Shown here: positions 1-45,884 of the stretch, piece by piece | Layout: every line of letters begins with the position of its first letter | How positions within the stretch are numbered: the first letter of the stretch is position 1 | Assembly: GCA_000442015.1 (NCBI GenBank) | Contig: KE560729.1 | Location: 1-49,722 of the forward strand | Direction of reading: 5' to 3' | Length of the DNA: 49,722 nucleotides | Source of the DNA: Rozella allomycis CSF55 | Taxonomy: Eukaryota | Made by a program: the position numbers and the translations under genes | Notes under the pieces: generated by a model | What the model was told of the DNA's origin: nothing | The model's input: the letters and a program-made list of their open reading frames with translations, nothing else | The model's database searches: none

Positions 1-2246
1 CATTCTGATTTGGAGGAAAATTGGCATTTATTTTCAAAGAAATTTACACTTTTAAACGAAGAGTATAAAGTGATGTCAAAGAATGTTGAAATGATGATTC
101 ATGTTGTGCTAAGAAGAAATAAAGTAGAGAAAATGATTCAAGTATAAAAATTAACAAAGAAATAAAAGGCTTATCCTGAACAAAGGAAGGAATTGTTCTT
201 CAACTATATTGAAGAAGAAATGAAACATAAAGACACCAACTTTGTAAGAAATCTCTTTGAGATTTTGGTTGCTGAATTTTGTCTGGTTGTTGAAGTGTGG
301 ATGAAATATTTAAAATTTTTGGTATATTTTCAATAAGAATTAAATAAATTAGCGGCTAAACTTGTGTGTTGAATCTGTTGTGAGTGTGATAAGTTGGAGG
401 GCTTGTAGGAATTGTACGTGGTCTTCTATGGTTTGGATTGAGCATTTACATTTTATGGTACAGCATTTACATAAAATTTATAGGAATTGTTTAAAAAGGA
501 TTTTAATTTGATTGTTGAAGAGTATGAAAGGAGTGTCCAGATTGGTTATTCCAATCCTCTGGAGTATTTGGAAATTTCGTTGTGTATTCTTGACATATTC
601 CATCGATATTCTAAACAAGGTTTGACAAGTGATTTTGAATTGTTTGATAAATTGGCTTTAAAGGGATTAGATATTCAAAGACAAATTGATCCAAATGATT
701 TAAGAATTTATTTTATTTATGCTTTTACTTTTGCTTCACATGATTTTAATAAAACAAGATCCATTCTAGAGCAAGCATCAAGGGAACATTCAAAGAATTA
801 TTTATTTTGGCTGAAATACGCAGAGATGGAAAAGTAAAAGTTTAATTCTTAAATAATAAAGAAATTTTGGTGAAATTAAAAAAGTTTCGTCGCTGTGTAA
901 GAGGGCCATTGTTGCCATTCATGACAGCAGCGTTAATTACATTTATGAAGCTTACCTTGAATTTGAAAGATTTTATGGCGATATTTCATCATTTTATGTC
1001 GCGTTTGATAAAATTAATAATGATAAACTTTACAAACAANTTCGCTGTTTAAGAGGGCCATTGTTGCCATTCATGACGGCACCGTTAATTACATTTATGA
1101 CGCTTATCTTGAATTTGAAAGATTTTATGGCGATATTTCAACATTTTATGTCGCGTTTGATAAAATTAATAATGATAAACTTTACAAACAACAATTTCAA
1201 GTTGAGCCAAAGGAATCTCCTGTTGAGCAGCCAATGATGAACACGCTGGTTGAATCTAAAACTGAAAAAAGAAAACATTCAGATCTTGATGAATCTAGAT
1301 CAATTAAAAGAAAAAGTAACAAATTCTTTGTTTGTTAAAAAGAACAAGAAAAACCAAATCAACGCACCGTTTTCCTGTCAAATTTGGATTACAATGTTAA
1401 TGAAGAAGAAATAATTAATGCTTTAAAGCAAGTAAACAAATTCATTAAAATTCAAAGTGTGGTGAAATTCAAAGTGTTAGAATTGTTNGTCTTTGTTTGT
1501 TAAAAAGAACAAGAAAAACCAAATCAACGTACCGTTTTCCTATCAAATTTGGATTACAATGTTAATGAAGAAGAAATAATTGATGCTTTAAAACAAGTAA
1601 ATAAATTCATTAATATTCAAAGTGTGGTGAAATTCAAAGTGTTAGAATTGTTACAAATGAGAATGGTAAATCAAAAGGATACGCTTACGTTGAATTTGAT
1701 TCTTCAGAGTCTGTTGAATTAGCTTTGAAATTAGATAAAACGGACTTAAACGGAAGGCCAATGTTTGTTAGTCCTTATCAAAGAAAGTCAACTAGTCAAG
1801 AAACTTCTACAAAGAAAGAAGACAGAAAAATTCTATACGTTAATAAACTTTTAAAAAGCACGACTAAGAAAGATTTGGAAGAGTTCTTTTCTTCCTATGG
1901 GCCCAATAAGGTTCGCTTAGTGTGTGAAAAGGATGGATCTTGCAAAGGTTTTGCTTACGTTGAATTTAACGATCATGTAATCCTTTTTAACTTTAATTTA
2001 TTAAAGGAAACTGCTGCTAAAGCTTTGGATGCTCATAACAAGGAATTTCTAGGCGCGAGAATTCATGTTGCTTTTTCAAATCCTCCCAAGCAGAAGAAAG
2101 TATCCGGTAATCAAGAAGTAGAAAGCAAGCAACTTACAATGATGGTTCCTCACTCTGCAAGAAAAAAGACTTCAAAAGATAACGCAACATTAAACTCTCC
2201 AAAATCTAATGATGATTTCCGTAGCATGTTATTTAATTCTAAATAA
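1..2246 (+). CDS. SART3: SART3/Prp24-like U4/U6 recycling factor (HAT repeats + RRMs), 5'-truncated, multi-exon, with N-flanked assembly duplications
   Basis: Spliced translation gives HAT-like helices (WRACRNCTWS), RRMs with RNP1 motifs (KSKGYAYVEF, CKGFAYVEF) and the C-terminal Lsm-binding motif PKSNDDFRSML. Introns are 26-31 nt. Confidence 0.85.
889..1191 (+). repeat. ~151-nt direct duplication flanking N1040 (assembly/haplotype overlap)
   Basis: 889-1039 and 1041-1191 are nearly identical, with several substitutions. Confidence 0.85.
1324..1652 (+). repeat. ~164-nt direct duplication flanking N1488 (assembly/haplotype overlap)
   Basis: Near-identical copies on either side of the N. Confidence 0.85.
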
Positions 2247-2760
2247 ATTAACTTAAATTTTGTAATCTACTTTGCTACATTGAATTTCTGTTTTTGTCAA
2301 TTCTATTCATAGAAATGAAGGGGCTAATTATAGATTGCGACCAATGAAATTTGAAACAATCTATATTTAAGAAAACACGAGGTAGCCCCTTATCCTCATG
2401 AAACTAGAGACCATGCGTCTGTTAATTTCTTTCGTGCTTGGTACAGTTTTTGTCAACGCGACCACTAGTACCGCCAGCAACAACAACTCAACCAGTGCAT
2501 CTGTTTCTCTAACAGCACCAACATCTACCATCACAGGTACATCTCCAACTTCATCGACATCAACCAATTCAACAACAACGGCGACAAATCTACCAGCATC
2601 ATGCAAGGTCAAATCAATCAGAAAGGAAATTCGGGATCTCACTCCCAGCGAACTCAAGCAGTTCACCGACGCCATCCTCAAGATCAACACACAAGGCATA
2701 GTGGACACCTTTGCCTACCTCCACGACACGCAATCGCACAAGATCCACAACACAGCAATN

Positions 2761-3523
2761 TTTCTTTACTTCAATTGATGAAAGGAAACTGCTGCTAAAG
2801 CTTTGGATGCTCATAACAAGGAATTTCTAGGCGCACGAATTCATGTTGCATTTTCAAATCCTCCCAAACAGAAGAAAGTATCCGTTAATCAAGAAGTAGA
2901 AAGCAAGCAACTTACAATGATGGTTCCTCACTCGGCAAGAAAAAAGACCTCAGCAACATTAAACTCTCCAAAATCTAATGATGATTTCCGTAGCATGTTA
3001 TATAATTCTAAATAAATTAACTTAAATTTTGTAATCTACTTTGCTACATTGAATTTCTGTTTTTGTCAATTCTATTCATAGAAATGAAGGGGCTAATTAT
3101 AGATTGCGACCAATGAAATTTGAAACAATCTATATTTAAGAAAACACGAGGTAGCCCCTTATCCTCATGAAACTAGAGACCATGCGTCTGTTAATTTCTT
3201 TCGTGCTTGGTACAGTTTTTGTCAACGCGACCACTAGTACCGCCAGCAACAACAACTCAACCAGTGCATCTGTTTCTCTAACAGCACCAACATCTACCAT
3301 CACAGGTACATCCCCCACTTCATCGACATCTCCCACTTCATCAACGGCCACAACTCTACCAGCATCATGCAAGGTCAAATCAATCAGAAAGGAAATTCGT
3401 GATCTCACTCCCAGCGAACTCAAGCAGTTCACCGATGCCATCCTCAAAATCAACACACAAGGCATAGTGGATACATTTGCCTACCTCCACGACACGCAAT
3501 CGCACAAGATCCACAACACAGCA
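2761..3523 (+). repeat. Near-identical copy of ~1984-2759 (SART3 3' end + tyrosinase 5' end) joined at N2760; probable haplotype overlap
   Basis: Direct duplication abutting a single N, with scattered SNPs and small in-frame indels. The first tyrosinase copy (2398-2759) stops exactly at the N. Confidence 0.85.
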
Positions 3524-4408
3524 ATGTTCCTTCCATGGCACCGACACTTTATCAACAAATTCGAGCAGGAGCTGCGCAAAGTGAATGCCAACGTCACACT
3601 TCCATACTGGGACTGGTCCCTCGATGCAGCGCATCCCGAAAAGAGCCCCATCCTCTCCTCCAAGTACATGGGCAGCTCGTCGCAGGGCGGGTGTATTCCC
3701 GACGGACCATTCAAAAACTTTACCGTCAAGGGAAACTGTGTCAAGCGAACGTTTAATCCGAATCCGCCAAAAACAATAACGACGTTCCATTCAACGTCCC
3801 TGCTCGGTGAGCTGATCAGAAAGAACTATACGAGCTACGATGAATTCAGAAGCGCGATTGAAGGATCTCCACATGGTGTGCCGCATACGTTTATTGGCGG
3901 GGACATGTCTACGATGCGATCTCCAGCGGATCCCTTGTTCTACTTGCATCATGCTTTTATTGACAAACTGTGGAATGATTTCCAGCAGGAAAATAACAAA
4001 CAGTTTCTGAACAAGTATGTGTCCGATCCAAAGTCTGCTCAATTGATCGGATATACGGGTGTTAATGTTGCCGATGTTTTGAACCTGGAGAGCATGTGTG
4101 TCCAGTATGTTATGGCTGGCGCGATTGTTGATTCACCGGATTCTATTACATGGAATGTTCCTGCACCAGCACCGTTGGATGATGACTGGCTCAAGATTAA
4201 CCACATGAACTCTACGGAAGTGAGGAAACAGGAAACTGAGATTAAGCAAATGCAAAATAAGGTTATTGAAGATGGAAAGAAGGGAAATATTCCACCTGCA
4301 CCTGGTTATAACGACACGTACAAAAAAGATGAAACTAACAGCGGAGTGTCTTTTGAAACATCATTAGGGTTAGCTCTATTGATTGGATTTGTGCTAAACT
4401 TATTCTAA
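3167..4408 (+). CDS. Secreted tyrosinase (type-3 copper protein) with Ser/Thr-rich linker and hydrophobic, GPI-signal-like C-terminus; intronless
   Basis: Signal peptide; CuA H..H..FLPWHR; LPYWDW; CuB PHGVPH..DPLFYLHH; C-terminal SLGLALLIGFVLNLF. Confidence 0.92.
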   Translation: MKLETMRLLISFVLGTVFVNATTSTASNNNSTSASVSLTAPTSTITGTSPTSSTSPTSSTATTLPASCKVKSIRKEIRDLTPSELKQFTDAILKINTQGIVDTFAYLHDTQSHKIHNTAMFLPWHRHFINKFEQELRKVNANVTLPYWDWSLDAAHPEKSPILSSKYMGSSSQGGCIPDGPFKNFTVKGNCVKRTFNPNPPKTITTFHSTSLLGELIRKNYTSYDEFRSAIEGSPHGVPHTFIGGDMSTMRSPADPLFYLHHAFIDKLWNDFQQENNKQFLNKYVSDPKSAQLIGYTGVNVADVLNLESMCVQYVMAGAIVDSPDSITWNVPAPAPLDDDWLKINHMNSTEVRKQETEIKQMQNKVIEDGKKGNIPPAPGYNDTYKKDETNSGVSFETSLGLALLIGFVLNLF

Positions 4409-7590: not shown

Positions 7591-10177
7591 TTAAAGAGGT
7601 TCTACACTGGCTGATTGAAAAAAGAATGTGCTGGCAGACATGCTCATATTACCTTGGCTTATAATATCATCATCTTGAGATTCCAAATTAAACACTCTAA
7701 GGTGGTCATTGTCAATTGTCCAATTGTTGTTTGATGCATGCAATAAATGAATATATGTGCATATCCCTATTAATTAAACCGAAAATTCATTTACTGGCCA
7801 ACTCTTCAATTGACAATTTGTCACAATCACTTTCAATTTGCGCTTGCTTATAAAACCTTCTCTTCATTCTTGTAGTGGAAAAGGGAATAATGTTATTCAG
7901 ATATTCATCAAACATTTTAATAGATAAACAACCCTGGTTTGCAAAATCATATTTTTTCAATCTAAATGTAAACTTTGAAAATTGATTAATGAAATTACAA
8001 ATGCATAGTTGGAATCTTTGTTGGTTATCGTCAATTCTCTAAAGAAATCAATGATATGATTTTTGCTTATTTTTCCGGCGCCAACGCCTTTAGATGAACT
8101 TAGAAGCATTAATTCCATTTGATCATAATCTTCCTTCAAACGCCCTGGATAAACTATTGAAAGAAAATCTTTTAGTTTTCGGGAATCATCAACATTGTAT
8201 TTTGATAGATAGTTTGAAATCAATCGAACGTATTTCCATGAAACTTCATCAGTGCCTGCAAAGAAACGAAGAAAAGAATAGATTTCCTATTTTTTAATTG
8301 AATTGAATCTCGTTTACTGAGTTTTGAAATTCTTCCTTTTGGAAAACTAACAAAAGATCATGAATAACTGACAATGCGATTTCTTCTTGTATGTATCGCT
8401 TGAAATAAAAATCATACACAAATTTCTATTTCTTCTATTATTATTAATTACTCTGAATGGGATCATTCCAAAATCATTGTCACTTTTATCATGAAGTAAA
8501 TCTTCTTTCCATCTTGCACTCAAAAGTTCTTCAATCTTATCCAAAGCAGATGATAAGGCAATTTCTCTAACAGCCAATGGTTTGAATCCCCCTCTTTCCA
8601 AAAATTCATTCCAAACTATTCTCATTTCCTCTGAAATCTATCCCATGTCTCCTATATTATTACTGAATCATCTTCAGGGATATCAGGATGTCTTTTCAAT
8701 TCATAAATTTCACTTTCTTTGATCACCCTAACATCCTTAATCTTTAGTGGTGGCTGAATAAACTTTAAATGGGTCGCTTTATCAGGCAGTGCAACAATCT
8801 TGTCATGATACACAATATGCGGGCACATTGAGATGCGATCATTGCATTTCTTACAAAAATCAGATTTCAATGATCTAAACGATGTTGCATTATCTGTTGA
8901 AACATAAATCTTTTGAAAACTAAATGCATTCCAGATACCTTGATTGAATATTTCTTCAACGCTTCATCAGTCTTTCTCATTACAGTTGTATGGTCAGCAT
9001 CTTGAATAATTCTCTCTTTCATTTTCAGCAAATATTTTTGATGAGAAACTAACAATTCTTGTTCGTCTCGCAATTCTCTAATCTTCTTTTTAAAATTCTC
9101 TACTAAATCTTCTTCCTGATTAATTCATTCAAAATATGCTTACTTCTCTTTGAAAAGAATTGGCATTCATTTCTATTGATGTCATTTCATCTAAAATGCT
9201 CTTCTTTTGAGAAATAACGTTCAGTTCCTGTTCATATTCATCCAACTGTGTATTCAACAATTCGCCAATCTGGTGATTCATTTTAAACGTTTCCTTCAAA
9301 TCAAATTCAGTTAAATCTAACGCATTGATACTAAGTGTCTTGTCCTCATAAATAAACTTGTCTATTGCTTTAATTATTCGTTTATTACCGTTATCTTTGG
9401 TATCAACAAAATCTCCGTTTGGTTTAAAAACTGATAATTTTTCAACAGCGCTTCTAGCCTCCTGTAATGATCCCTTAAATAGTTTGACAATCCAACTTAC
9501 CTTCAATTGGTTAATTTCAAATTGGTATTGATTCTCCTTTGATGATTTCTCCTTGTTAAAGTGTTCATTCTCGTAAATCTTTTTATCCAATTTTTCTTCC
9601 AAATCCAAAATCAAGTTTTTCATTTTTATATTTTCTTGCTCATGACGCAGCGCTTCTTGCCTCAATTATTTAACACAGATTGTTTTACTTTAGTGACATG
9701 CTTCTCTTATTTAGCATCATGATATCTTTCTCTCTAAATTTTAATTTCCTTGTTAATTCATTAATTTGTTCTTGCATCTCTTTGCTCTCATCAGATCTGT
9801 GACAGTATTTCAATTTTCATACTCTTGTTGATTCGCCCGCGCGGATACTACGTAATGGGGTATTCTCTGAAACTTTGATTGATTATAATTGGTAGTAGTA
9901 AATAAGTTGGAATACACAGATCTATACAATTCATCTCTTATAATTGTCAAAACACTCTTCAATGCTCCAGAATATCCAATTATATCATCTAATTTTTTAT
10001 ATTCTATTCTAATACCGAGAGCTGAAAATGTTTCTTCTGTTCTTTGAATGCAAGGCGAGTCAGGAAACTTTACAAATGTTTCACGCAGTCTCATTTCCTG
10101 CTGCAAAACTGAAACATAAATGTATTTAAATTACTGTTAGATTTTGAATTCTTCTTCTTGTTGTCTTCAAAAATCAT
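7591..10177 (-). CDS. Coiled-coil protein, TSNAXIP1-like (putative flagellar)
   Basis: A continuous spliced ORF over ~12 short introns. The N-terminal segment (EETFSAL..IIGYSGALKSVLTIIRDELY) followed by coiled coil resembles TSNAXIP1_N. Family call is from memory only. Confidence 0.55.
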
Positions 10178-10228: not shown

Positions 10229-10905
10229 ATGGCTCTAAAGTTATATTTTCATGCAGACTTGGTGTATACAAAAGATGCAGAATATGTTAAAGTTTTGGAA
10301 AGAGATGGATTTGGTAAAGGTGTAAAATCACGTTCAAAAACCACGCAAGAACAAGGTAAACTACTTTTAGAGGAGAAATAGAAACACTTCAGCTAAGTCG
10401 CGAGGAAACTATATACCTTTTAAAGAATGGCAAAGCTGAATTACTTACTACAGATAACAAAAACATACAAATGGAAGAGATCTGGTCGAAATTTGTGAAT
10501 AATGATCCAGATTTTATTTACAAGTACAGAGTTTTTGAATATCTGAGAGATGAAGGCTTGATTGTAAAGTCTGGATTGAAATATGGAGCTAATTTTGGTA
10601 ATGCGCATTGAAAATCATAATCGTGGCGTATACTGATTCTATTGAGAAGGTGCATTCGAAATATGTAATATTGATATGCAAACAAGGAGATGATATTGAT
10701 TTTGTACAGCTGTTATGTTGTCAAAGAGTTGTTTCACAGGTACGAAAGGTAAAGATTAGCGAAATTCGTTTTGTAGACACTCTTGTTGGCGTTGCCTCGA
10801 ATTAAGGGAGACTGCAGTGTTAAGACACTCCAAGATCTAAATACTAATATTAATGTGGAACTCGTTGAGGCTAAACGATGGCTACCCCAGAGGACTCGTC
10901 AATAA
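10229..10905 (+). CDS. SEN2: tRNA-splicing endonuclease catalytic subunit, Sen2-like
   Basis: GFGKGVKSRS, YRVFEYLRDEGLIVKSGLKYGANF-VAY..HSKY, RVVSQVRKTLLL and C-terminal RWLPQRTR. Requires the non-AG intron 10598-10623. Confidence 0.85.
10598..10623 (+). other. Non-canonical GT-CG intron (26 nt) in SEN2
   Basis: TTT G|gtaatgcgcattgaaaatcataatcg|TG GCG TAT restores GLKYGANFVAY. There is no in-phase AG before the catalytic Tyr/His. Confidence 0.75.
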
Positions 10906-10982: not shown

Positions 10983-12541
10983 TTAATCATCAANAACTAT
11001 GCAGTTCTGCTGAGTATTAGATTTCCTCTTAAAGTGTTTCAGGATACCGCTATCCAGTTTAGGTTTCTTGGAATTTTTCTCATTCAAATCAGTTTTAACA
11101 TTTGACTTTGAGGGTGTGACTTGAGTGATGATCTCAATATCAGAATCATCGCTTTCGACTGCGCTATTGTTTTTCTGTAAGACTTTATCCCAAACAGAAT
11201 GCTTCCCTTGCCCCTTTTCAAAGTTTGTAAATGAGATTGCAATTCTTCTACAAGGCAACAAACTCTTTAGATCAACTGAAGATTTTATAAAATGACAAAC
11301 TTTATCTGCAATCAATGACGCTTCATTGTTCACAAGTAAATTCTTGACTGGAATTGATTTTGATCTTGGCGAAGTAAAATCTTTCGTATATTGAATCTAT
11401 TAAAATAATTGAAGTTTATTACGGTCAAAGTTTTAGGGAAAATCCCATGAAATTCTAAAAATAGTTCTTTCCATCTTTCAGATATTTCAAGCGCCAAAAT
11501 TCTAATCCAGCCCATCAAAACATCTTCTTTCTTTACAAATTCAGTCAATGCTTTTGCTGACATTATTGACTTTGGAAAAGATTTCTTTTCAATCTCACTG
11601 TGAATGTCACCACGAATGTATTTGTAGATCCATTCAACTGTCTCATCATCAACAGACAATGAATTTTTAAGTTCCTCAAATGATTTATCCAAAATAGATG
11701 ATACATTTTCTCCAAGCAGCGAAATCTTTTTACCAAGTTTTCCACCCAAGCCAGGCAAGGCATGAACAGGAATATGTCTAAGAAAATCAACTCGTTTCTC
11801 ATAGCGTATGATGGTTTGTTGATCAGGCTTGTTCGCAGCAGACCCAATCTTTGCTAACATTCTGGAATGACTAACCCCAGTACTACAAGTATAGCCAAGT
11901 TTATCAAAAAGAAGCTTTCTTATGTATTGTCCAAATTTAGCGCCTTCATGCAATCTCAAATCATTCCATGAGCTACACATTAACACTTTTTCATACTCTT
12001 CGTCGCCCTTGAAGAATTTTGAACAGTGTTCACCAAAATGTCCAAGATCATTCCAATCCATGCTACCAACAGCTTCGAGTAAGTCATTTGAATACTGTTC
12101 GCAATTTTCTGATAATTTTTGATGCACAAGTTCTGTAACATCCAAGTAAACTTCATCAATGGAAGCTTTTTCAACTATAATCCTATTATCAATATTTGAC
12201 AGTAATGATATAATATCTTTGCTCGCTTTTCTATAAGGATCCAAACTAATTTTATGCTTATTTCTATCTGGTGATCCTTCCACATAAAATGGTTGCCAAC
12301 TATCCACGTTTTCAGGTGAAACAACAGCACAGTGGACAAGTTTCAAGTCTGGACATGCTTCAAGAGCTTCAGTGACCGACATGTGTCTTTGAACACCATT
12401 CTTTCTCGCTGCGTAGTTGACAGCGATTAAAGATTGCCACTGTTGAACTGCCAGCGGTGTACTTGAAGGTATTTGTAATCTTAGTTGCTCAACTTGGCAA
12501 TAGAAACAATCCAAATCAAGATGGATGATAATAGGAAGCAT
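10983..12541 (-). CDS. RAD30: Y-family DNA polymerase eta
   Basis: IIHLDLDCFYCQVE, AVQQWQSLIAVNY, EKASIDEVYLD, KPDQQT; one 26-nt intron near 11397-11422. Confidence 0.92.
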
Positions 12542-19444: not shown

Positions 19445-20982
19445 ATGGACATTGATGAGGACGACTGGTTAGATCAACTCGATGAAGATGATTTAAAACG
19501 TATCGAACAATGTACATCTCAAGACACTCCAACTACAGCCCAAACACCAGTCGAGCAAGTAGTGAGCAGAAGAATAAACTTTGAAGACACAAATCAGCAA
19601 ATAATCAGCCAACTAAAAGCAGAAAATAAATCACTGCAAGCTAAAATAGATCAAGCTCTACTATCCAAATTCACCAAAGAAGGAGAAATTAAAATTGTTC
19701 GTGAAAATTTAGCACGACTTCAAATAAAAAATGACGAGCTGTCGTTGCAGCTGTCGACGCATACTGATTCTATAAATAAAGTTAGGAAACAGTTGGAAGC
19801 TGAAATGGAAGAAAAGTTGGAGAGATTGAAGACAGAGCTGCTGTTTAAAGAGCATGAATTGAGGCAACTTTCTTTTGGGAGAAAGAGAATGGCTAGTGAT
19901 TCTTTGGAGTATTTAAATTCTTCTCAGCAATCGACTATTGTAAAGGAAACTAGAGAGAATGATTCGATTCAATTGAATGTCGATCATTGTTTGTTAGAAA
20001 AATTGGACAATACAAGTAAAGATCTACAGTATTGTTAATAGATAAATACTACAAGCAAATTACAAGAAATATTATTAATGGATCAAATTTAAATGATTTA
20101 TTGCTGTTATTGATTAAAGAATTCTGCCAAAATGATAATTCTAAAGATGAATTAATTGTTCTCTATGAAATTCTAAGAAATCCAAAAACTTGCGCGTCTT
20201 TTGAAAGTGTCGGTAAAGATATAACAATTCTATGAATAGATTTTGAATTGGTGAAGCATTTTGCAGGAAAAATAATCCAACAATTCAAAAATGAAAAGAA
20301 CTTATTTTTGCTAGACTTTCTCTATGAGTTGACGGGATTCTGTATTCTGGAAAACGAAATTATCAATTTGTAACGTCTTTACTTTTTGTTTGAATCAGTA
20401 TAAAGAGGTCTTTTATTAATGACTCTCTAGTGCATCAGATTGTTGAATCAAATTTAGAGAATTATGATGCTCTATGGAACCTTTTATCTTTATTAAGCCA
20501 AGGTTGTTTAAATTCTCTCTTTTTGAAGTAGATGTTTCTTTTTGTACATATTTAACTGTTGCTGATCCGTGGTATGTCGCTTCTGATGACAATAGACTTC
20601 CATTGTTAGATTTTATCATAACTTTAAATTCTTCAAAATCATCACTACTTTCCTTATTCGCCTCTTTAACGGGTTTATCATCAGGAAGGCAATTTCTTGT
20701 CAATTTGAACAAGGTAAATTCTATTTCTTTATATAAAAGTGTATCCCATTCTTCATTGATTGCTTGGAAGACCACCAAGACGTTAGCACCTTGGATCAGA
20801 CATTGAACATTCTATCAGTCATATTCAGTTGCAAGCAATCTCGAAGACAATTGTTTCCAAAATGGTTTCAAAACTTGAAACTCTACAAGGAGAAACTAAT
20901 ATACCTTCTTTCTAGAATCCGCCACTCCAACAATGATCATCACATTAAAACAATAGCATCCGATTTACTAGAATACTTTTAA
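19445..20982 (+). CDS. ATR-interacting protein (ATRIP/Rad26/Lcd1-like)
   Basis: Acidic N-terminus, coiled coil with KEGEIKIVRENL and LKTELLFKEHE (ATRIP-type motifs), followed by helical repeats; 5 introns. Confidence 0.7.
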
Positions 20983-22306: not shown

Positions 22307-24967
22307 TTAGCTGTTTATCTTTATTAGATTATTGATTCGGTCAATCTCACGCTGCAAATCATCATCATCCTTTGTTGTTGAAACAAATGTTTAGTTTACT
22401 TCTTGATCCATGTAATCAAAACTTTCACTGCCTGTGAAGACATTTTTAGTGTACTTTTTAAGGTCGTCAATTTGATTTGTTGCAGCATTTAATTCTTTGA
22501 GAATCCTATCCTTTTCAACGTTCAAAACATCCATTTGCTTTAATAAATTTCTCTTTTCATGATTTGCATTATTCTTTGTTTGTAATAGTTTATCAATCTC
22601 TTTATTCAAATCGGTGATTTGTTTTTCTTGTTGCCTAACTGCTGCTTGCAACTTTGTAATAATCTAGATTTAAATTGAATTGCAAATAACTTTACAATCT
22701 TTTGATCTGTTGAATTCTGAATGGCGTGGTCTTTTAACGTTATCGCTGCGACCATTTCTCCTTTAACCTTTTCCAACTCCAAACAGACGCTTCTTTCTCT
22801 TCTTACAGCTTCCTTTAACAGATTTTCATAATTAGATGACATAGTTTTGCTTTCTTCTTTCCTTAATAATATGCATTATAATAATTTACCATTTTTCACT
22901 CAGACTTTGCTGTCTCGACATTGTTGCTTGGTATTCCTTGTTCATCCTGTCAAACTCTATTTGCAAACGATCCAGCTTTCCTTGCAATGAATTATTCTTT
23001 TCCTTGTAAGATTTCATGATTGATTCTAATTCACTCTTTGCTTTTTGCTCAATTGTTGAAGCGAGATCATTCTGGTTTTGAAAGGCTACTTCAAGGCTAG
23101 AGAATTTATCTTGAAGTTGAACTTTCTCCAACTTTAAATCTTCATTTTCTTTCTGGGTATTCCTTAAACGTCTGTAAATGTCATCAAGTTGTGATTTCAT
23201 ATTGTCCATTTCCCGTTCAAGTGAATTCTCTCTTCTGTTCCAAGTTACTAGCGAACTATAATTGAATTATAACATGATTACCTTTGAAGTTGATTTACAG
23301 CTTCATCTCTTTCTCTTTGAGTGGAGTTTAATAGTCGATGTAAATTTTCCATCTTATCCTTAATTTGAGTGTTTTCAGTCATTGGAGCAGATCTTAACTT
23401 TTCATATTCCGTCTCTAAAGCTCTTTTCTCTCGCTTTGCTCTTTCCAGTTCTTGATTAAGTTCGGCGTTTCTTAACTCTGCATTCATAAGGTTGGTCTTT
23501 AATGTCTTTTTCTCCTGTGAGAGTTTAGCATCCATTTGGGTCAGTTCTTGATCGATCTTTTCTCTCCATTTCAGTTGATGCTTGGCAAATCGGTCATTTA
23601 GTCTCTTTATTTCTTGTTGGCTCTGCTGTTCCAATGCCAGAGCCTTGTCTCGCTCCAATAAAGTTTCTTCAACTTTTAAAATACTGTTTTGCACTGCCTG
23701 AAACGCCTCTATTTCTTTATTCCCTAGTTCAACCATTCTTTGTTCTATAGATTTTGTTGCCTTGATCAATTGATTATGATCATTAGAGAGTTTTTCTAGC
23801 TCCATTGATTTTCTCTCCAATATCCCCTTCAACTCTATTTTCATAAACCAGTATAATTACCATCACACTCCATACTAAGCTTTTCGTTATTTTTACATTC
23901 TGATTGATAGGATTGCTGTATTTCCCTTAATTTATTTTCAAGATCGTAAATATTTCGGCTTAACATGTCCAACTCATTCTTCCCCTCTTGTAATGCAATT
24001 TCCAGGCTTTTATTGTCTCTCAACACTCTATTATAATCGGATTTCTGTAGTTCAAAATCATGCTCCAAAGTTTTCCAAGTATTTTTCAAGTTATCATATT
24101 CTTGCTGAAGATTCGCATTATGGTTTTGAAGAAATTGATAAGACTCATTCAATTCTAGATGTTGACGCTTCAAGGATGAATATTCATTGTTTATTTGAAA
24201 TACTTTGATGTCTAAAAAATATATCAGATACCTTCTGAGGCCTTATTCTGTACCGCGGCTTTCAGTTTATCCACTTCTTTCAAAACTCTCTCTACCTGGG
24301 AATTAAGCTTTGAATTTTCTTCCGTCAAAAGAGCATTTGTCTCTATGAGATCGCTTTTTAAAACTAAAGAGAGAATTTTACTTGTCATCCTCCGTTGCAT
24401 GTTTGTAGGGCATGAAAATTTGCTCGGCGTTTCCCTTTACGGCAGATTGCAGCTCATTGAAAAGACCTTCATTCTCTTTTATTAACTTGTTTCTTTCTTC
24501 TTTTAGCCTCTGTATTTCGTTCTATATGTAGTTTAAAATATACCTTACATTAGCTTCTTGAGCTTTATCTTGACATTTTAGTAGCTTCATATCATAGGCT
24601 ATAAGCAATGACTGAATAGGATGTGCATGATTCATCCAGTCAGGTAACATAGAGTTTGATATCTACGGGCTCAAATGATTATTGCGGTACCTTTTTGACT
24701 CGTGCCTGCTCTTCATTTGTTAATGGAATTTTCTGTTGATAAACAGCTAATTCTGCTGAAAGTCTTTCCACTAAAAATATAAATGGTTCACTGTGTACCT
24801 GTTTTCTTTAAGAAATCACTGTTTTGTGCCTGAGGCTGTGTTGTTTGTGGTCTTGGTAAATCATTTAAATTCAATGACAATCTCCTTTTTGGTGTCTCTA
24901 AGTCATGGTTATCTAACGCAATATTTGCCCTATTGGGTGAGCCAGGCGCGGAAGGAAAATGATTCAT
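22307..24967 (-). CDS. SCLT1: Centriolar distal-appendage coiled-coil protein, SCLT1-like
   Basis: DFLKKTVERLSAELAVYQ, PDWM..QSLLIAYD and EAFQAVQNSILKVEETLLERDKAL resemble SCLT1 blocks; ~10 introns. Confidence 0.65.
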
Positions 24968-26939: not shown

Positions 26940-27657
26940 TTAGATTGTTTCCTTCCTTCTAATCTTGCTCTGAACAATAGCCTCGGTCGCCTCTAGCATG
27001 CCTCTCTTTTTGGAATTCCAATCATTAAACTCCAAAATATTTGCCGCTCCCATTTGAAACACTATTATGTCTCATTAATTTTCATACTATCCTTTTCTGT
27101 ATTGTCTAAGCGCAAATAAAAGGAGCTTGATCGGTCATTAGGAGTACTAAAACACCGTTTTGCAATTTCATTTATTCTGGTGGAAAACGCTTTGGCGACA
27201 ATATTTGCAAGTTCTATATCATTCGAATACCATTATTTGTCATCCCAATATTTTACTTTTTGATGAATGTAAAACTAAAGAGAAAATAAAAGGGACAGTA
27301 ATTGTTTAAAGGCATTGATTCCGGAGATACCTTGAGATCTTCTTGTACTTTTGTCCCTAATATCTTTGGAAGACGAAAATCAACGAGTTCACTCTTTACA
27401 AAATCTATTGAATATTACTGTTCTTGTAGCGTTTCTATTAGCCACAAAGGTATGTCTACTTCCATTGTTTCCTTTTTATAAGTGTTTGAATATAATACTG
27501 CAGTATTGCGAACATTTTCTTCTTTAAATAATGACATGAAAGATAGTAGTTCTTCTTCGGGCACACATTGGCATTTCTATAAAAATTTGATTATTAAATC
27601 TACCATATCTTCAGCAAGAAATAGATCGATATCAAAGTAACGATCGTTAGCATCCAT
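26940..27657 (-). CDS. PSF3: GINS complex subunit Psf3
   Basis: YFDIDLFLAED, VDIPLWL, ELANIVAKAFSTR, FYLRLDNTEK. Requires the non-AG intron 27231-27256. Confidence 0.85.
27231..27256 (-). other. Non-canonical GT-TG intron (26 nt) in PSF3
   Basis: AAA AA|gtaaaatattgggatgacaaataatg|G TAT TCG AAT. Read-through hits TAA and the nearby AGs are out of phase. Confidence 0.7.
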
Positions 27658-39640: not shown

Positions 39641-42600
39641 TTAAGGTCTGATTCTTATTTTAACATATGGCACTTCAACATCATCATCGTTAGCATCATT
39701 AACACAAACTTCCAGAATGATATCTTTAACATGTGCTGGAATAGGTGTTTTCGTGATAGATTCAACCAGTTGAGAGATGGGAATGTTCATTCTTTCTTCC
39801 AACTTCTTTTTGTTCATAAAGAACGAGTAGAGCATGCTAACGTTGCAAGAGACCATAGTGATTGATAGACTGTGTTGAGACTTGAAAATGTCAATTAGCT
39901 GAGAAAGAGTAATGTCACCGTTGATGTCGAATCTGTCCCATAGAGTCCATTCAATGTCGTTGTATTTCAACTTTGGAGCAGCGATTGGTTCAGAGAATGT
40001 GAATAGAGGCAAAGAAAGATTAATGAAGCCATTCTTGTAATCATCGATCTTTCTGTTCCCATCGATAATCTTTAAAAGTTCTAAACAAATTAAACCAGAG
40101 ACTAGTGCAGTTGTTGTAGCGATTGCAGGAATGATTTTGCCAGCGATGAATTTAGTTTTGTGCTTGTCAGCTGGTGGAATATCATAACAAGAAGCTCTTA
40201 GATTGGAAGTTGCTGTGATGAAATCAATGTGAAAGTTTGAATCATCGTCTTTTTCAAAATCAATTCTTTGCATTTTATAGCCAGGTAGTGAATTAGGTAA
40301 AGGTAAAGATTTAATTAAAGAATCAACGTCAATGTTTAGATTAACATTTTCATTTGAATTTTCATTATTTTCAACTTGAATTTTAACTCCACTTTTTGGA
40401 ATAAATTCTTCAACTTTAATTTTATTAACAATTTCTTTAAAATAGTTTAAATCTAGAGATCCTTTTAAACCAAAATTTTGAGCTCTTAAATTTGAAGCAA
40501 AAATGATAAAATCTAAATGATCCTTGTTATTTAAATCAAACTTTAATGGCTTTGGACATCTCTTGGGTCCAGACCAAAAAGGAGTCCCACTTGAATTTAA
40601 TGAATCTGGTGGGAAATTAAACAACAATTGTTTTATATTATTACTAAAATATTCTTCAAATTTATTTCTTGCCCAAATCACACATTGTTCAAAATTAATT
40701 GGCTTTTCACTAACAAGACAAGATTCCAATCCCACAACTGCTTCCTTTAACACATTATTACCTATCAAGTATTACTAGTGGAAGATTACCTAGTTAATCT
40801 CACATATCACTACTTTTACCTTGCTTGGTCAAGTTTTCTAGATAATCATTGAATGATAAATATTGATTAACATTCTCAGCTAGATTTGTAAATAACCCTT
40901 CAAAGATATCTCTTCCCCATTGAATGGTATGTTCAATTTGATTAGGAAAATTCTTCAGAGTACACATTGGAATTGATTTCTCTGGTGGATCTTGAGATGA
41001 TGAATATGATTCAGTTAGAAATGGTACCACAACCTGTGTATTCCCCTTTGTTCCCAATGTTCCACTTTCAAGCAATGGTTTTCTATAATAAACACATCTT
41101 CTATCAACATATTTTCTTGCATCAACATTATCCAATGCATTCGTTACAACATCCAATCCCTCAAAAAATTCATCATTAAAAATATTCTCAGTTTCAATGC
41201 CAACTCTATCTTGGAAACACTCAATCTTAATATCCTTATTCATCTCCTTCACTGCCTTGGCTGCAGTCATCGATTTAGACTTTGAAACATCCCACGGTCT
41301 AAACAAGAATTGTCTATTCAAATTGCTCTTCTCAATGGAATCCATATCTGTTAAATAAATCAATCCTTCCTTTCCACTGCCAATCCCCATCATTCCCCAA
41401 TTCTTCAACATCTCACATCCAATAGCCCCAGATCCAACCAGAAACGCTTTAACATTCTCAACCTTTTCATGAAACTTTCTTCCATACAAATTAATCATTG
41501 GTGAATATCTATCATTCTCACTAGAACACTCTTCTTCATTCAACTCATAATTCTTTGGCAATGATTCAATTGAATCAAAATAGAAATATTGATAAATTGG
41601 ATAAAATTTTCCACTGCAACATTTTAATACTTCTTGCGCTACAATCCCACCTAGAAATCCACTCATGGCTGAAATATATCCCCTCGATTCAAAACTCATC
41701 TCTTTTATTATCCCTTGCTCTATTTCAACACTCATCCCCTCTTCTTTAATCATACTCTCAACAATTCTTATCAATTCTTTAGCATCTTCTTCATTTCTTG
41801 GTCTAGGCAATCTCTTATTCTCTTCTTCATATTTCTTCAATCCAATAAACCCTAAATGAATCATCATCGGTCTATCAAATTTAGAAAAATCAGAAATCAC
41901 AAACTCTGGATCTTTAAAACTTTCTCTAAACGATTTCTACTCTAACACATAAATTCTCCTTACAAATGATATCGTCTTTGGCTGCTTCACTTGTTGGAAA
42001 ATACCCCCTGATACATACTCTGACAAATTCCTTGTATCCCCAATACTAAACGTAAACGGTCCATGAACCTTCACTCTCCTAGGCTCACACCCATTCAACT
42101 CTTGCATCCCCTTAACCTCAGAAAACGTCACATAATCGCCATCCTCCAATCCATGTCTACTCTCCTCCAAACACGTCACTATCCCATCAGCCTCCCTACT
42201 CACACCAGCAACCATCCCGCTCTCAGCATCCTTGCCATTCGTATCAATAACCTCAAACTCTCTTCCAAAATCACAAAACGTAAATCTTTCTCACAAAAAT
42301 TCACCCCCTTACCCAAACAGCCCCCGCACATCAGCAGCAATAAACCCTATCCCACGCGCATGCGTATACTCATTAATCTCAACAAGCTCCCGCAAACTGC
42401 CCTCTGTCAACACAACACACTGGAACCTCTCAACCATCTCCACAGAAAACTCACCATCCAACACATGCACTGGCACATAGCTGTTCAACTCGGCCAACTT
42501 GCCCACACTCGCTTCATCCCTCCTCTTGCCATAATCACTCTCGTGCAGGAAAAACTTTACTGCGTCTATTCATCCCTTACCTGCGCCGCCAAATCCTCTG

Positions 42601-43028: not shown

Positions 43029-45884
43029 TTATGCAAAAAAGTCAGTCTCAATGTCAGTCAACTCACCCTTGTCAAACATCNCTCAATATCAGTCAACTCA
43101 CCCTTGTCAAACATCTCCCAAAACTTTTCATTAAAAACAAAATCATGCTGGTTAGTAACCTCATCAAAATTAACATTAAACCATCTAGGTTTCCACACAA
43201 TACCCAACTCTTCCATTTCTTTACGCTTACTTCTCTGCTTCTCTTCCAATCGCTGCTTCTCCTCCTCAGCTTCAACAATGTTGCCCTCTTCCATCTTTCT
43301 TTGATCTGGTCTCAACCTAGAATCAGTAGCAGGGAGTTTGTTTTGAATGTCGGGCGTTATTTCATTCAGCTGCATTGTAAACTGAGAGAATCCGTAATAT
43401 TCAGCATTCTCGGGTGGAAATGGATTCGTTTGCCATAATAACTCTAATTTGTCCGAGTCAATTTGTTTATAGAATGAATCATTCCATTTGCCCTTTAAAT
43501 TACAAACAATCTTTTTCTCTGACTCATAAATTGTTCCTTTAACTTCGCAAGCTAAAATCTTTGTAAAATATAAGTATTTACATGAGCCTTTAANAAACTA
43601 AAATATTTACATGAGCCTTTAAAATAACCACTTTCAATGAATTCTAATTCACAAGATTCATTTGTCTTGTGATTCAAAATTGTACAGTTTCCAACATGCT
43701 CTAAATATTTCGTTCCAGCTAATAAATTCTTAACCTTTGACTTAACTTTTGTCCATGTAAAGTAGTCAAGAGTATCAAAGAATTTACAATGGATTGTTCC
43801 CATATTTATCAATTCCAAACTTTTGCCCCAAAATGTTGTTTTTGGTTGAATCGATCCCCAAATCTTAAACTTTGGATGAGAAACGTTAAAGGCTACAATC
43901 ACAGGGCGATGGCTCACTTTCTCTGCAAAATACCTCAAATTTAAATCTGGTCGATCTAAAACAAACGTCTCTCCTAGCAAGGGATTAAACGGCTTTCGTG
44001 TTGTTCTATTAAATGATGAAGAATATGAACTCACAACAAAGGCTGCTATATAGGCTAACCTTTGAATAGAATCACTAGCTTCTATTGCCTTGAATATTAG
44101 GCTTAGATATTCAAAATCTTCGCTAATTCTTTGCAAGAGACTCAATGGTTCATTAGTTGATATCGGCATAGATATCTGTGACATGTCCCTATCCTACCAT
44201 TACTTAAAAGCTATTACTTGCCCATGTTCCTTCTCAGAATCCCAAGTATAGAAATCTCTCCTCCACATATTTTAGATGGTAATACTTTTCTTCTGGATAT
44301 CAATCCATTTTCAATAATCTGATTATTCTCTTTAAAACTTTCATTAGAGTCTGAATCATCATCATCATCTACATCTTGTATCTTAATTTCTGAAATATCA
44401 GAAATCTCATCAAAATAATCTTCTTGTTTGTCTTCAGCGTCATAAAACACTTCATCCATTGTAAATGAAGATGCCTTTGATTGAGATCTATTTCGTTTCT
44501 CCACAGAGAGCCTATGCTCATGATTCAGATCATCCATTAAATCCAAGTATTCATTTTCCAAACGCTCCTTTTTCATTTTACAAACACTCGCATAATTTTG
44601 AAAACTCAATTCTTGCTGAGTCATAATCGCTGAACATTTCGCAAAACAACCCTCAAAGGTTTCAGAAATTTCGTCAATGTCATTTTTACTTACCACCTTT
44701 TCTTTCATTGTCTTTTTTGTCTGCTTTATTTTATCTGCAATTTCAAAATGCATTTTATTTAGATTTTCATTTTCAGCCTTAAACTGTACCAAAAATTTCT
44801 CCTCTTCAGTCATTCCATTTTCTTTGTCGTTAATCATTGATTCTTGACTAGAACTTTTTCTATACGATTTTGAATATCTTGAAATATTGATAGCTCGACT
44901 CCATTTTGTATAATCTTCGGCAGAAACAGCCCTTAACTGAAGTAGTAATGTCCCAGAGTCAATTATTATCATGTTATTCTCGGGGATTCTACTAACTGCA
45001 CAAGTCTTTAAATCCACTGATCCCCTACAATAACTTTAGAAATATCACATAGTCCAATTACCTGTTGGGATCAGAAAAATAGGATAAAACTTCTCCTTCC
45101 AATTGGAACCATCGTTTAGCAAATCCTTGCAGTTTTTTATTCTTCTTTTTCAACAACCAACCACTACAATCAGGTTCATTTTTAATGACAAGATCATTTA
45201 ATGAGTAACCATAAACTTCTTACCATTATTCTTTGCCAAAGTCACAAAAAATGTTAATCTCTTGGAGGTATTAATAGAAAACGAATTGTCAAAATATAAA
45301 ACATACACACCCGGCATTGGAACTTTATAACTTCCCTTGATTGTAAACTTTGCAGAGTCATATCGCGCCAATGTAGACACACAAATCAAATCTTCATCAA
45401 CGTCAGAAATAATAGGTCCATCCATTGAGGAAACTATTAAGTTATTAAAATAACACTACCTGAATCTTTCCTACTGGAATTAGAACCTACTTTAACTATA
45501 ACACCTACACATACTTGCTCTCAATCGAACAACAGGATGTGATTTATCAGCATCACCCTCTTCATTTCCAATTTTTTGATTCTTTGAAAACTTTCTCGCT
45601 CGTCCTGCAACATTACTCGAGCTACTGCCTAGCTTTGCAGGCGGCTGGATCGTAAAGTCCTTCAAACTGGAAAGAAAAAATTGTTCCAATTCTTTATCAT
45701 TGTTCTCCTTAAAATATTGATCGTACTCTCCTTGGCCTAGCACATAACTGGACTTGCGATAATATAGACCGAACGCTATGCCATTCTTGCGGGTAGAAAA
45801 ATTCCAATATAATGTCAGATCTTTACTGTCCGCTGTTACGTAGTATTTAAAGCAGTCTCTTTTCGGAACATCTACCTCCTGCAT
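43029..45884 (-). CDS. OSH3: Oxysterol-binding protein, Osh3-like (GOLD, PH, FFAT, ORD)
   Basis: GOLD (YVLYFDNSFSINTSK), PH (GWLLKKKNKKLQGFAKRWF), FFAT EVFYDAED, ORD RKPFNPLLGETF, EKVSHRP, TDSRLRPDQR. Confidence 0.88.
45195..45223 (-). other. Non-canonical GT-TG intron (29 nt) in OSH3-like gene
   Basis: AAT G|gtaagaagtttatggttactcattaaatg|AT CTT GTC. There is no phase-1 AG before the PH motif GWLLKK. Confidence 0.7.

Follow-up and report, generated by a model that had tools for sequence, protein, structure and literature searches.

A candidate 26-nt GT–CG intron in a Sen2/EndA-type tRNA-splicing endonuclease gene of Rozella allomycis

Positions 10229–10905 (+) of the window, the 49,722-nt stretch of Rozella allomycis CSF55 DNA analyzed here, are predicted to encode a 198-aa Sen2/EndA-type tRNA-splicing endonuclease once two 26-nt segments and a 28-nt intron are removed. 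An mRNA that preserves the active site would need the joint 10597|10624, and the sole solution with a GT donor ends in CG. The public model of the gene, ROZALSC1DRAFT_22212, is wrong at two introns and is left without the catalytic triad. That the C at 10622 is genuine, and that the segment is spliced as a GT–CG intron, is the reading we favor, tentatively and at somewhat less than an even chance.

Gene structure, enzyme family and the public model

The gene and its surroundings were laid out in window coordinates as follows:

10229–10355 (+): exon 1, with the start codon at 10229; reproduces the N-terminus of the public protein (P0003)
10356–10381 (+): intron 1, 26 nt, GT..AG, with a GTAAA start and an ATAG end; present in the public model and in the ORF-joining reference set
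10382–10597 (+): exon 2, end of the putative N-terminal domain (PF02778 positions 34–67) and catalytic-domain positions 1–28 (PF01974); 100% identical to P0003
10598–10623 (+): intron-like segment, 26 nt, with a GTAAT donor, a CG 3′ end and an in-frame TGA at 10609–10611; best deletion variant
10622 (+): critical base, C at position −2; A in 29 of 29 reference short introns, a set selected for AG ends
10624–10748 (+): exon 3, predicted catalytic core with Tyr116, His124, Arg148 and Lys155 on conserved columns; PF01974 positions 30–71
10749–10776 (+): intron 3, 28 nt, GT..AG; starts 9 nt earlier, at 10740, in the public model
10777–10905 (+): exon 4, with the stop codon TAA at 10903–10905, by reading of the sequence
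10598–10686 (+): public-model intron, 89 nt, GT..AG; removes 21 codons, including those for Tyr116 and His124
10994 (no strand): single N, a scaffold contig joint 372 nt downstream of 10622, with no flanking overlap duplication

Elsewhere the gene is intact: its frame is unbroken and the triad is present. The 26-nt segment splits codon 114 in phase 1, in the strand preceding the catalytic Tyr.

The window reads in the standard genetic code, and the endonuclease gene does so cleanly. A ciliate code, with TAA and TAG as Gln, was considered on account of the tiny introns and was ruled out by the 100% identity of exon 2 (10382–10596, 73 aa as queried) to a Rozella protein. That protein, ROZALSC1DRAFT_22212 of R. 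allomycis CSF55, has 174 aa and the UniRef name tRNA-intron lyase, and is encoded on a contig of 9907 nt; the window is a different, longer assembly than its source. The G+C content along the window is approximately 0.30–0.42, and no tRNA genes were found in it.

When each exon was scored alone, PF01974 matched exon 2 with 29 bits (cut-off 27) over profile positions 1–28 and exon 3 with 23.2 bits over positions 30–71. The putative N-terminal domain, PF02778, reached 20.5–20.6 bits against a cut-off of 21, over positions 34–67 of 67, and is included in the precomputed Pfam list for P0003. In the model with the 26-nt and 28-nt introns removed, conserved columns were occupied by Tyr116 (124/146 homologues), His124 (115/122), Arg148 (109/113) and Lys155 (105/114). 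The catalytic role of the Tyr, His and Lys is known from work on the archaeal enzyme. The likeness to EndA and Sen2 consists of the PF01974 domain, a putative N-terminal domain, and the Tyr, His and Lys on their conserved columns. At 198 aa, the predicted protein has the size of an archaeal subunit and differs in this from human Sen2, with chains of 465–485 aa.

Solved structures were searched with the public model, which lacks the catalytic core. Its best matches were archaeal EndA: 5x89 and 2cv8, both named tRNA-splicing endonucleases, and also 1a79, which we take to be Methanocaldococcus jannaschii EndA. Among eukaryotic chains, only Sen2 (7zrz, 8iss, 7uxa and 8hmy/8hmz) appeared at E ≤ 0.01, with E values of 4e-6 to 5e-5, and no Sen34 chain reached this threshold in the same search. 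The initial annotation had named the gene SEN2. The eukaryotic matches agree with that name, but it must be considered tentative, because archaeal EndA scores better and because the query lacked the core. Exon 3 alone, queried together with six residues from intron 3, gave no matches among solved structures at E ≤ 1.

Removal of 10598–10686 (89 nt) and 10740–10776 (37 nt), together with intron 1, reproduced the public protein letter for letter, and its exons were identical to the window at 174 of 174 residues. With these two GT–AG introns, the public model loses the conserved Tyr, His and Lys: missing from it are 21 residues that come after the exon 2 sequence Gly-Ala-Asn-Phe, together with the Val-Arg-Lys that precedes intron 3 and contains the conserved Lys155. 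Of the 149 homologues, 128 scored higher with the corrected model than with the public one; the median gain was 12.3 bits, and the top homologue gave 93.8 versus 53.3 bits. For intron 3, the 28-nt model outscored the 37-nt version against 92 of the 149, with a median gain of 0.5 bits and a maximum of about 20 bits in the top matches. When the public model is aligned to solved structures, or to nearly all of the listed representatives from 1.8 billion searched, the match stops at residues 113–116, which is the false joint. A search of a large collection of annotated or assembled proteins for one of at least 73 aa with the catalytic stretch of exon 3 found none and returned only the public model. 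The practical value of the 198-aa model is an annotation fix that restores three catalytic residues. Since the only public model for the gene lacks all three, surveys would score the Rozella tRNA-splicing endonuclease as inactive.

The 26-nt segment and the short-intron class of the window

By reading of the sequence, 10598–10623 is a 26-nt segment that starts with GT and ends with CG, just as the initial annotation had described it. The exon 2 frame, if read through the segment, meets the TGA at 10609–10611, and the frame with the catalytic residues is open only downstream of a TAA, at 10599–10601. PF01974 positions 1–28 are matched up to the Phe codon at 10594–10596, and the match resumes 26 nt later, at position 29/30, with Val-Ala. 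As no profile position is lost or added between 28 and 29/30, the profile would be continuous only if exactly 26 nt were removed. Because 10597 and 10623 are both G, removal of 10597–10622 (GG..TC) would yield the same mRNA as removal of 10598–10623; a GT donor is present only in the version that starts at 10598.

We then scored 1745 in-frame deletion variants, with starts at 10560–10639 and lengths of 2, 5, ..., 119 nt, against an HMM of 149 homologues, from which this gene was left out. The homologues had been retrieved with the public model, and any retrieval bias would favor that model. The maximum score, 160.9 bits, belonged to the 26-nt deletions starting at 10595–10598. Within this top group, a GT donor is found solely for the start at 10598, and the segment deleted there has CG as its 3′ end. 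Other lengths peaked at 155.0 bits (23 nt), 153.6 bits (29 nt) and 147.6 bits (2 nt, corresponding to repair of an indel or frameshift), and the public 89-nt GT–AG intron, at 120.6 bits, lay near the median of all 1745 variants (120.2 bits). The earlier claim that removal of 26 nt restores the exact spacing of the motif, GLKYGANFVAY, is upheld both by the continuity of PF01974 and by the rank of this removal at the top of the scan.

The stretch from 10600 to 10644 contains no AG dinucleotide. With the next two, at 10645 and 10648, the intron would measure 49 or 52 nt and would be out of phase. Only at 10685–10686, past the catalytic Tyr and His as had been stated initially, does an AG lie in phase; it ends the 89-nt intron, which deletes Tyr116 and His124. 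Nine variants with GT/GC..AG ends were scored, and the best of these, a GC..AG segment at 10603–10646 (44 nt, in frame, 144.3 bits), loses the catalytic Tyr. The canonical alternatives to the CG end are all predicted to remove catalytic residues.

A reference set of introns was assembled from GT..AG segments connecting two open frames, each at least 50 codons long and closing inside the segment, with the shortest solution taken for each joint. It comprised 29 short introns of 26–31 nt: eight each of 26 and 27 nt, five of 28, three each of 29 and 30, and two of 31. The same scan of the window gave no shortest solutions of 22–25 nt; there were five of 21 nt, mostly inside or overlapping longer candidates, and the longer solutions formed a flat scatter. 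The starts were GTAA in 24 of the 29 and GTAAT in eight, the endings TAG (18), AAG (8), CAG (2) and GAG (1), with ATAG in 13 of the 29, and the mean A+T content was 0.76. The short introns therefore appear as a tight class of 26–31 nt with an apparent hard floor at 26 nt, a GTAA start and an (A/T)AG end, as at 8638–8663 (−), 20016–20041 (+) and 23256–23281 (−); a branch-site motif was not obvious. A separate observation concerns the ubiquitin-activating enzyme E1 gene, where a 58-nt GT..AG intron at 40762–40819 (−) is made up of two back-to-back units of 30 and 28 nt, both starting with GTAA and ending with TAG, with no N there. This intron could be a duplicated intron, or it could be spliced in two steps.

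At 26 nt, the segment at 10598–10623 has the modal and minimal length of the class. It starts with GTAAT and ends with ATAATCG, having T at −3 and A at −4 as in most reference introns, and its A+T content is 0.65. Its 3′ score, calculated without position −2, was 4.7 versus a reference median of 5.1, and its 5′ score over the 8-nt donor was low, at 2.8 versus a median of 7.2 (range 0.7–8.4). It departs from the class at its 3′ end, which is TCG and not AG. In sum, the segment looks like a standard Rozella mini-intron in which C replaces A at −2. The A at −2 in all 29 reference introns holds by construction, because the set was selected for AG ends, and for the same reason the set cannot tell how often other ends occur. 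U12-type introns have an extended 5′ consensus of the RTATCC type; the segment starts with GTAATG and does not fit it.

Six joints in the window had a GTAA donor and an ORF-joining segment of 26–31 nt but no short AG solution, and homology support was found for 10598–10623 only. Of the other five, one is the second frame of a real intron at 834–861 and one is antisense to a tyrosinase ORF; the remaining three lack homology support, and their translations are in part implausible. None of the five was accepted. Separately, a possible gene at 27180–27330 (−) has a joint that the scan could not solve with a GT..AG intron between frames of 50 codons or more; on inspection, an intron of approximately 43 nt (GTAAAA...ATAG) together with a small exon may solve it.

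The following scheme could account for the segment. It would be an ordinary Rozella spliceosomal mini-intron in a Sen2/EndA-type endonuclease gene, the C at 10622 would be a genuine genomic base, and the intron would belong to the rare GT–CG class. Excision at 10597|10624 would give the 198-aa enzyme with its Tyr-His-Lys triad; use of the CG end by the spliceosome is what we infer. In introns of minimal length, the 3′ site might be fixed mainly by its distance from the 5′ site and the branch region, and a C at −2 would then be tolerated, perhaps at reduced efficiency. This ruler mechanism is suggested by the hard 26-nt floor. That a ruler sets the 3′ site of Rozella 26-nt introns, and that the CG intron of an essential gene, with no canonical site nearby, is spliced accurately, we regard as a rather unlikely conjunction. 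If the ruler were true, the lineage would be a natural system for the study of AG-independent exon ligation. Confirmation of the joint would mean that an essential gene, in a genome whose introns reach a 26-nt floor, carries a constitutive GT–CG intron for which there is no canonical alternative, and would provide a means of testing distance against AG dependence. If 10622 is instead A, or a mixture, the finding shrinks to a note on the assembly or on an allele.

Scaffold joints, haplotypes and competing readings of base 10622

The window contains seven single Ns: the one at 10994 and six others, at 1040, 1488, 2760, 30559, 43081 and 43594. At five of the seven, the d − 1 bases to the left of the N recur right after it, with d = 152, 165, 119, 35 and 29 nt and with 86–99% identity, and the N at 2760 is the joint of a duplication of approximately 769 nt, parts of which are 93–100% identical. 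These patterns mark the window as a scaffold in which an N connects contigs whose overlaps were left unmerged, with copies that differ by 1–14%, mostly through substitutions. For the spacings of 152 and 165 nt, real repeats within the gene at 484–1700 are a possible alternative to overlaps. Substitutions between the overlap copies (7/151, 7/164, 1/118 and 1/34) are spread over the length of the copy, and reflect either error-prone contig ends or two interleaved haplotypes. Genes at the unmerged overlaps appear to carry tandem duplications. An intron-free ORF of 417 codons with a tyrosinase domain (E = 1.4e-38) lies at 3155–4405 (+), where the G+C content of the window is highest (0.418 over 2001–4000), and its 5′ part falls in the second copy of the ~769-nt duplication.

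Another comparison between the assemblies comes from an oxysterol-binding protein encoded at 43032–44459 (−), which differs from its public CSF55 counterpart (P0153) at approximately 10 of 430 residues and by one 1-aa indel (~2%). These differences imply that variant alleles exist in the strain or culture and, with the endonuclease identical, suggest that haplotypes or copies have diverged within the strain. At the rate of the oxysterol-binding protein, about four differences would be expected in the endonuclease exons, and the chance of finding none is approximately 0.02 by our own arithmetic; given this low chance, the identity at 174 of 174 residues suggests that the endonuclease locus is common to both assemblies. 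The oxysterol-binding protein gene had initially seemed to need a 29-nt GC..AG or GT..AT removal. This was ruled out by a canonical GT..AG intron at 43610–43552 (−), which reproduces the joint of the public Rozella protein. That intron (59 nt) holds an N, along with a direct repeat of 17 nt at a spacing of 29 nt; its odd length stems from the 29-nt overlap duplication at the N, and it would otherwise be an ordinary 30-nt intron.

Uncollapsed, differing overlaps and an inter-assembly divergence of ~2% make a haplotype-specific or erroneous C a serious rival to a genuine one. In this respect the GT–CG intron of the initial annotation stands only in part: the sequence does call for the joint 10597|10624, but base 10622 is less secure than had been assumed. 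The public model bears on the same base, since it uses the 26-nt intron 240 nt upstream yet avoids the one at 10598. The gene caller's avoidance of the latter suggests, indirectly, that AG is absent at that site in the second assembly too, a reading taken from the caller's choice and not from the DNA of that assembly.

The strongest competitor to a genuine, spliced CG end is allelic variation, in which the C is real on one haplotype or in a subpopulation of the culture, an AG allele supplies the enzyme, and the C allele is spliced poorly or wrongly. We consider this unlikely on balance, while giving it considerable weight. The differences in the oxysterol-binding protein and the spread substitutions in the overlap copies, which look like allelic divergence, both speak for it, and, by our estimate, divergence of this order could well hit one of the several hundred bases that make up splice sites within 50 kb. 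It sits poorly with the identity of the endonuclease exons in the two assemblies (chance ~0.02) and with the second assembly's gene model, which also avoids the 26-nt intron; moreover, a recessive null allele could not persist in a haploid. An error in base calling or consensus is improbable. The true base would then be A, in an ordinary GT–AG mini-intron ending in ATAATAG, a single A-to-C change away from a textbook local intron, given the ATAG ends of 13 of the 29 reference introns, and the base lies in a draft scaffold with seven Ns and unmerged overlaps, 372 nt from a contig joint. However, 300 nt in the large duplication, at a comparable distance from its joint, are 100% identical between the copies, differences near joints may be allelic instead, and the gene model of the independent assembly behaves as if there were no AG at the site.

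A fixed C could also block correct splicing and leave a defective gene, either a recent pseudogene or a non-catalytic subunit; its transcripts would retain the segment (stop at 10609–10611), be spliced to the out-of-frame AGs (10645/10648), or be spliced to the in-frame AG at 10685, which gives the annotated protein. An A at −2 normally takes part in recognition of the 3′ splice site at the second catalytic step, and the public annotation is exactly the product that lacks the catalytic residues. Even so, we give this reading a slim chance: the 63 nt inside the 89-nt "intron" are open, match the family profile and encode the conserved Tyr and His, their codon usage (0.16 log-odds per codon) is within the range of the validated genes of the window (0.11–0.43), there is no other lesion in the gene, and Sen2 is essential in yeast. 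That there is no intron here at all, or a different one, is very improbable. The two frames would be connected by a 1–2-nt indel error, by ribosomal frameshifting or by the GC..AG intron at 10603–10646 (44 nt). Both frames are open over 10602–10608, so that a shift there would meet no stop, and the GC..AG solution is in frame; against these, read-through would add approximately eight residues to a motif of fixed spacing (147.6 versus 160.9 bits), no slippery sequence is visible by eye at 10602–10611, and the GC..AG variant loses the catalytic Tyr at 144.3 bits and has a donor, GCGCAT, unlike the local GTAA consensus. Explanations outside all of these readings have a small chance. The spliced GT–CG intron, which we still favor, has its own difficulties: the base at −2 is A in all 29 reference introns, albeit in a set selected for AG ends; the 5′ score of 2.8 is low; the scaffold has flaws at six of its seven Ns, and variant alleles occur in the strain; and all eight GT–CG introns of Drosophila have a similar alternative splice nearby, whereas the next AG at this locus lies 23 nt further on, out of frame.

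Comparison with known systems

If real, the GT–CG intron here would join an already known rare class. In an excerpt from a Drosophila melanogaster study (PMC4528330), FlyBase is described as holding eight GT–CG introns, six of them within coding sequence and all with RNA-seq junction support; all eight have a similar alternative splice nearby, which is canonical in most such cases. An excerpt on Ganoderma lingzhi (PMC11590231) lists 19 GT–CG among approximately 92,000 splice-site pairs (~0.02%), and an aphid paper, again in excerpt (PMC2662799), treats GT–CG as a usable signal. The Drosophila and G. lingzhi introns share the common GT donor and have CG in place of AG, a single-base departure from GT–AG, and in the endonuclease gene, GT and CG likewise flank a segment whose removal restores the reading frame. 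The Rozella case differs from those of Drosophila in that the first 22 nt beyond the CG end offer no AG and the two closest AGs would break the frame, with the joint predicted here from genomic sequence; it is also only 26 nt long, in the minimal length class of its genome.

We found no literature on non-canonical Rozella introns or on this gene in the sources covered, which did not extend to the original genome paper. Short introns are documented in the lineage: in passages from PMC6349667, two Rozella S23 introns of approximately 30 nt introduce premature stops and short Encephalitozoon cuniculi introns are spliced at less than 20%. Excerpts elsewhere put the lowest median intron length in a fungal set at 29 bp, the species of that minimum being left unstated; both isolate and single-cell assemblies of Rozella were part of the set (PMC8042348). 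In Rozella, about 2.5 introns per kb of coding sequence are given (excerpts of PMC8476143). The miniature introns of Microsporidia and Rozella thus come from the same lineage and are very short, but they are described with standard termini, unlike the CG end here.

Caenorhabditis elegans offers a precedent, as a short-intron organism that can use a non-AG acceptor. Aroian et al. in 1993 reportedly found that splicing in C. elegans does not need AG at the acceptor, and that a mutated non-AG acceptor was used at its original position. The nematode 3′ signal, as given in an excerpt from PMC4484395, is a pyrimidine run directly before the AG; the A/T-rich 3′ ends of the Rozella introns do not obviously have such a run.
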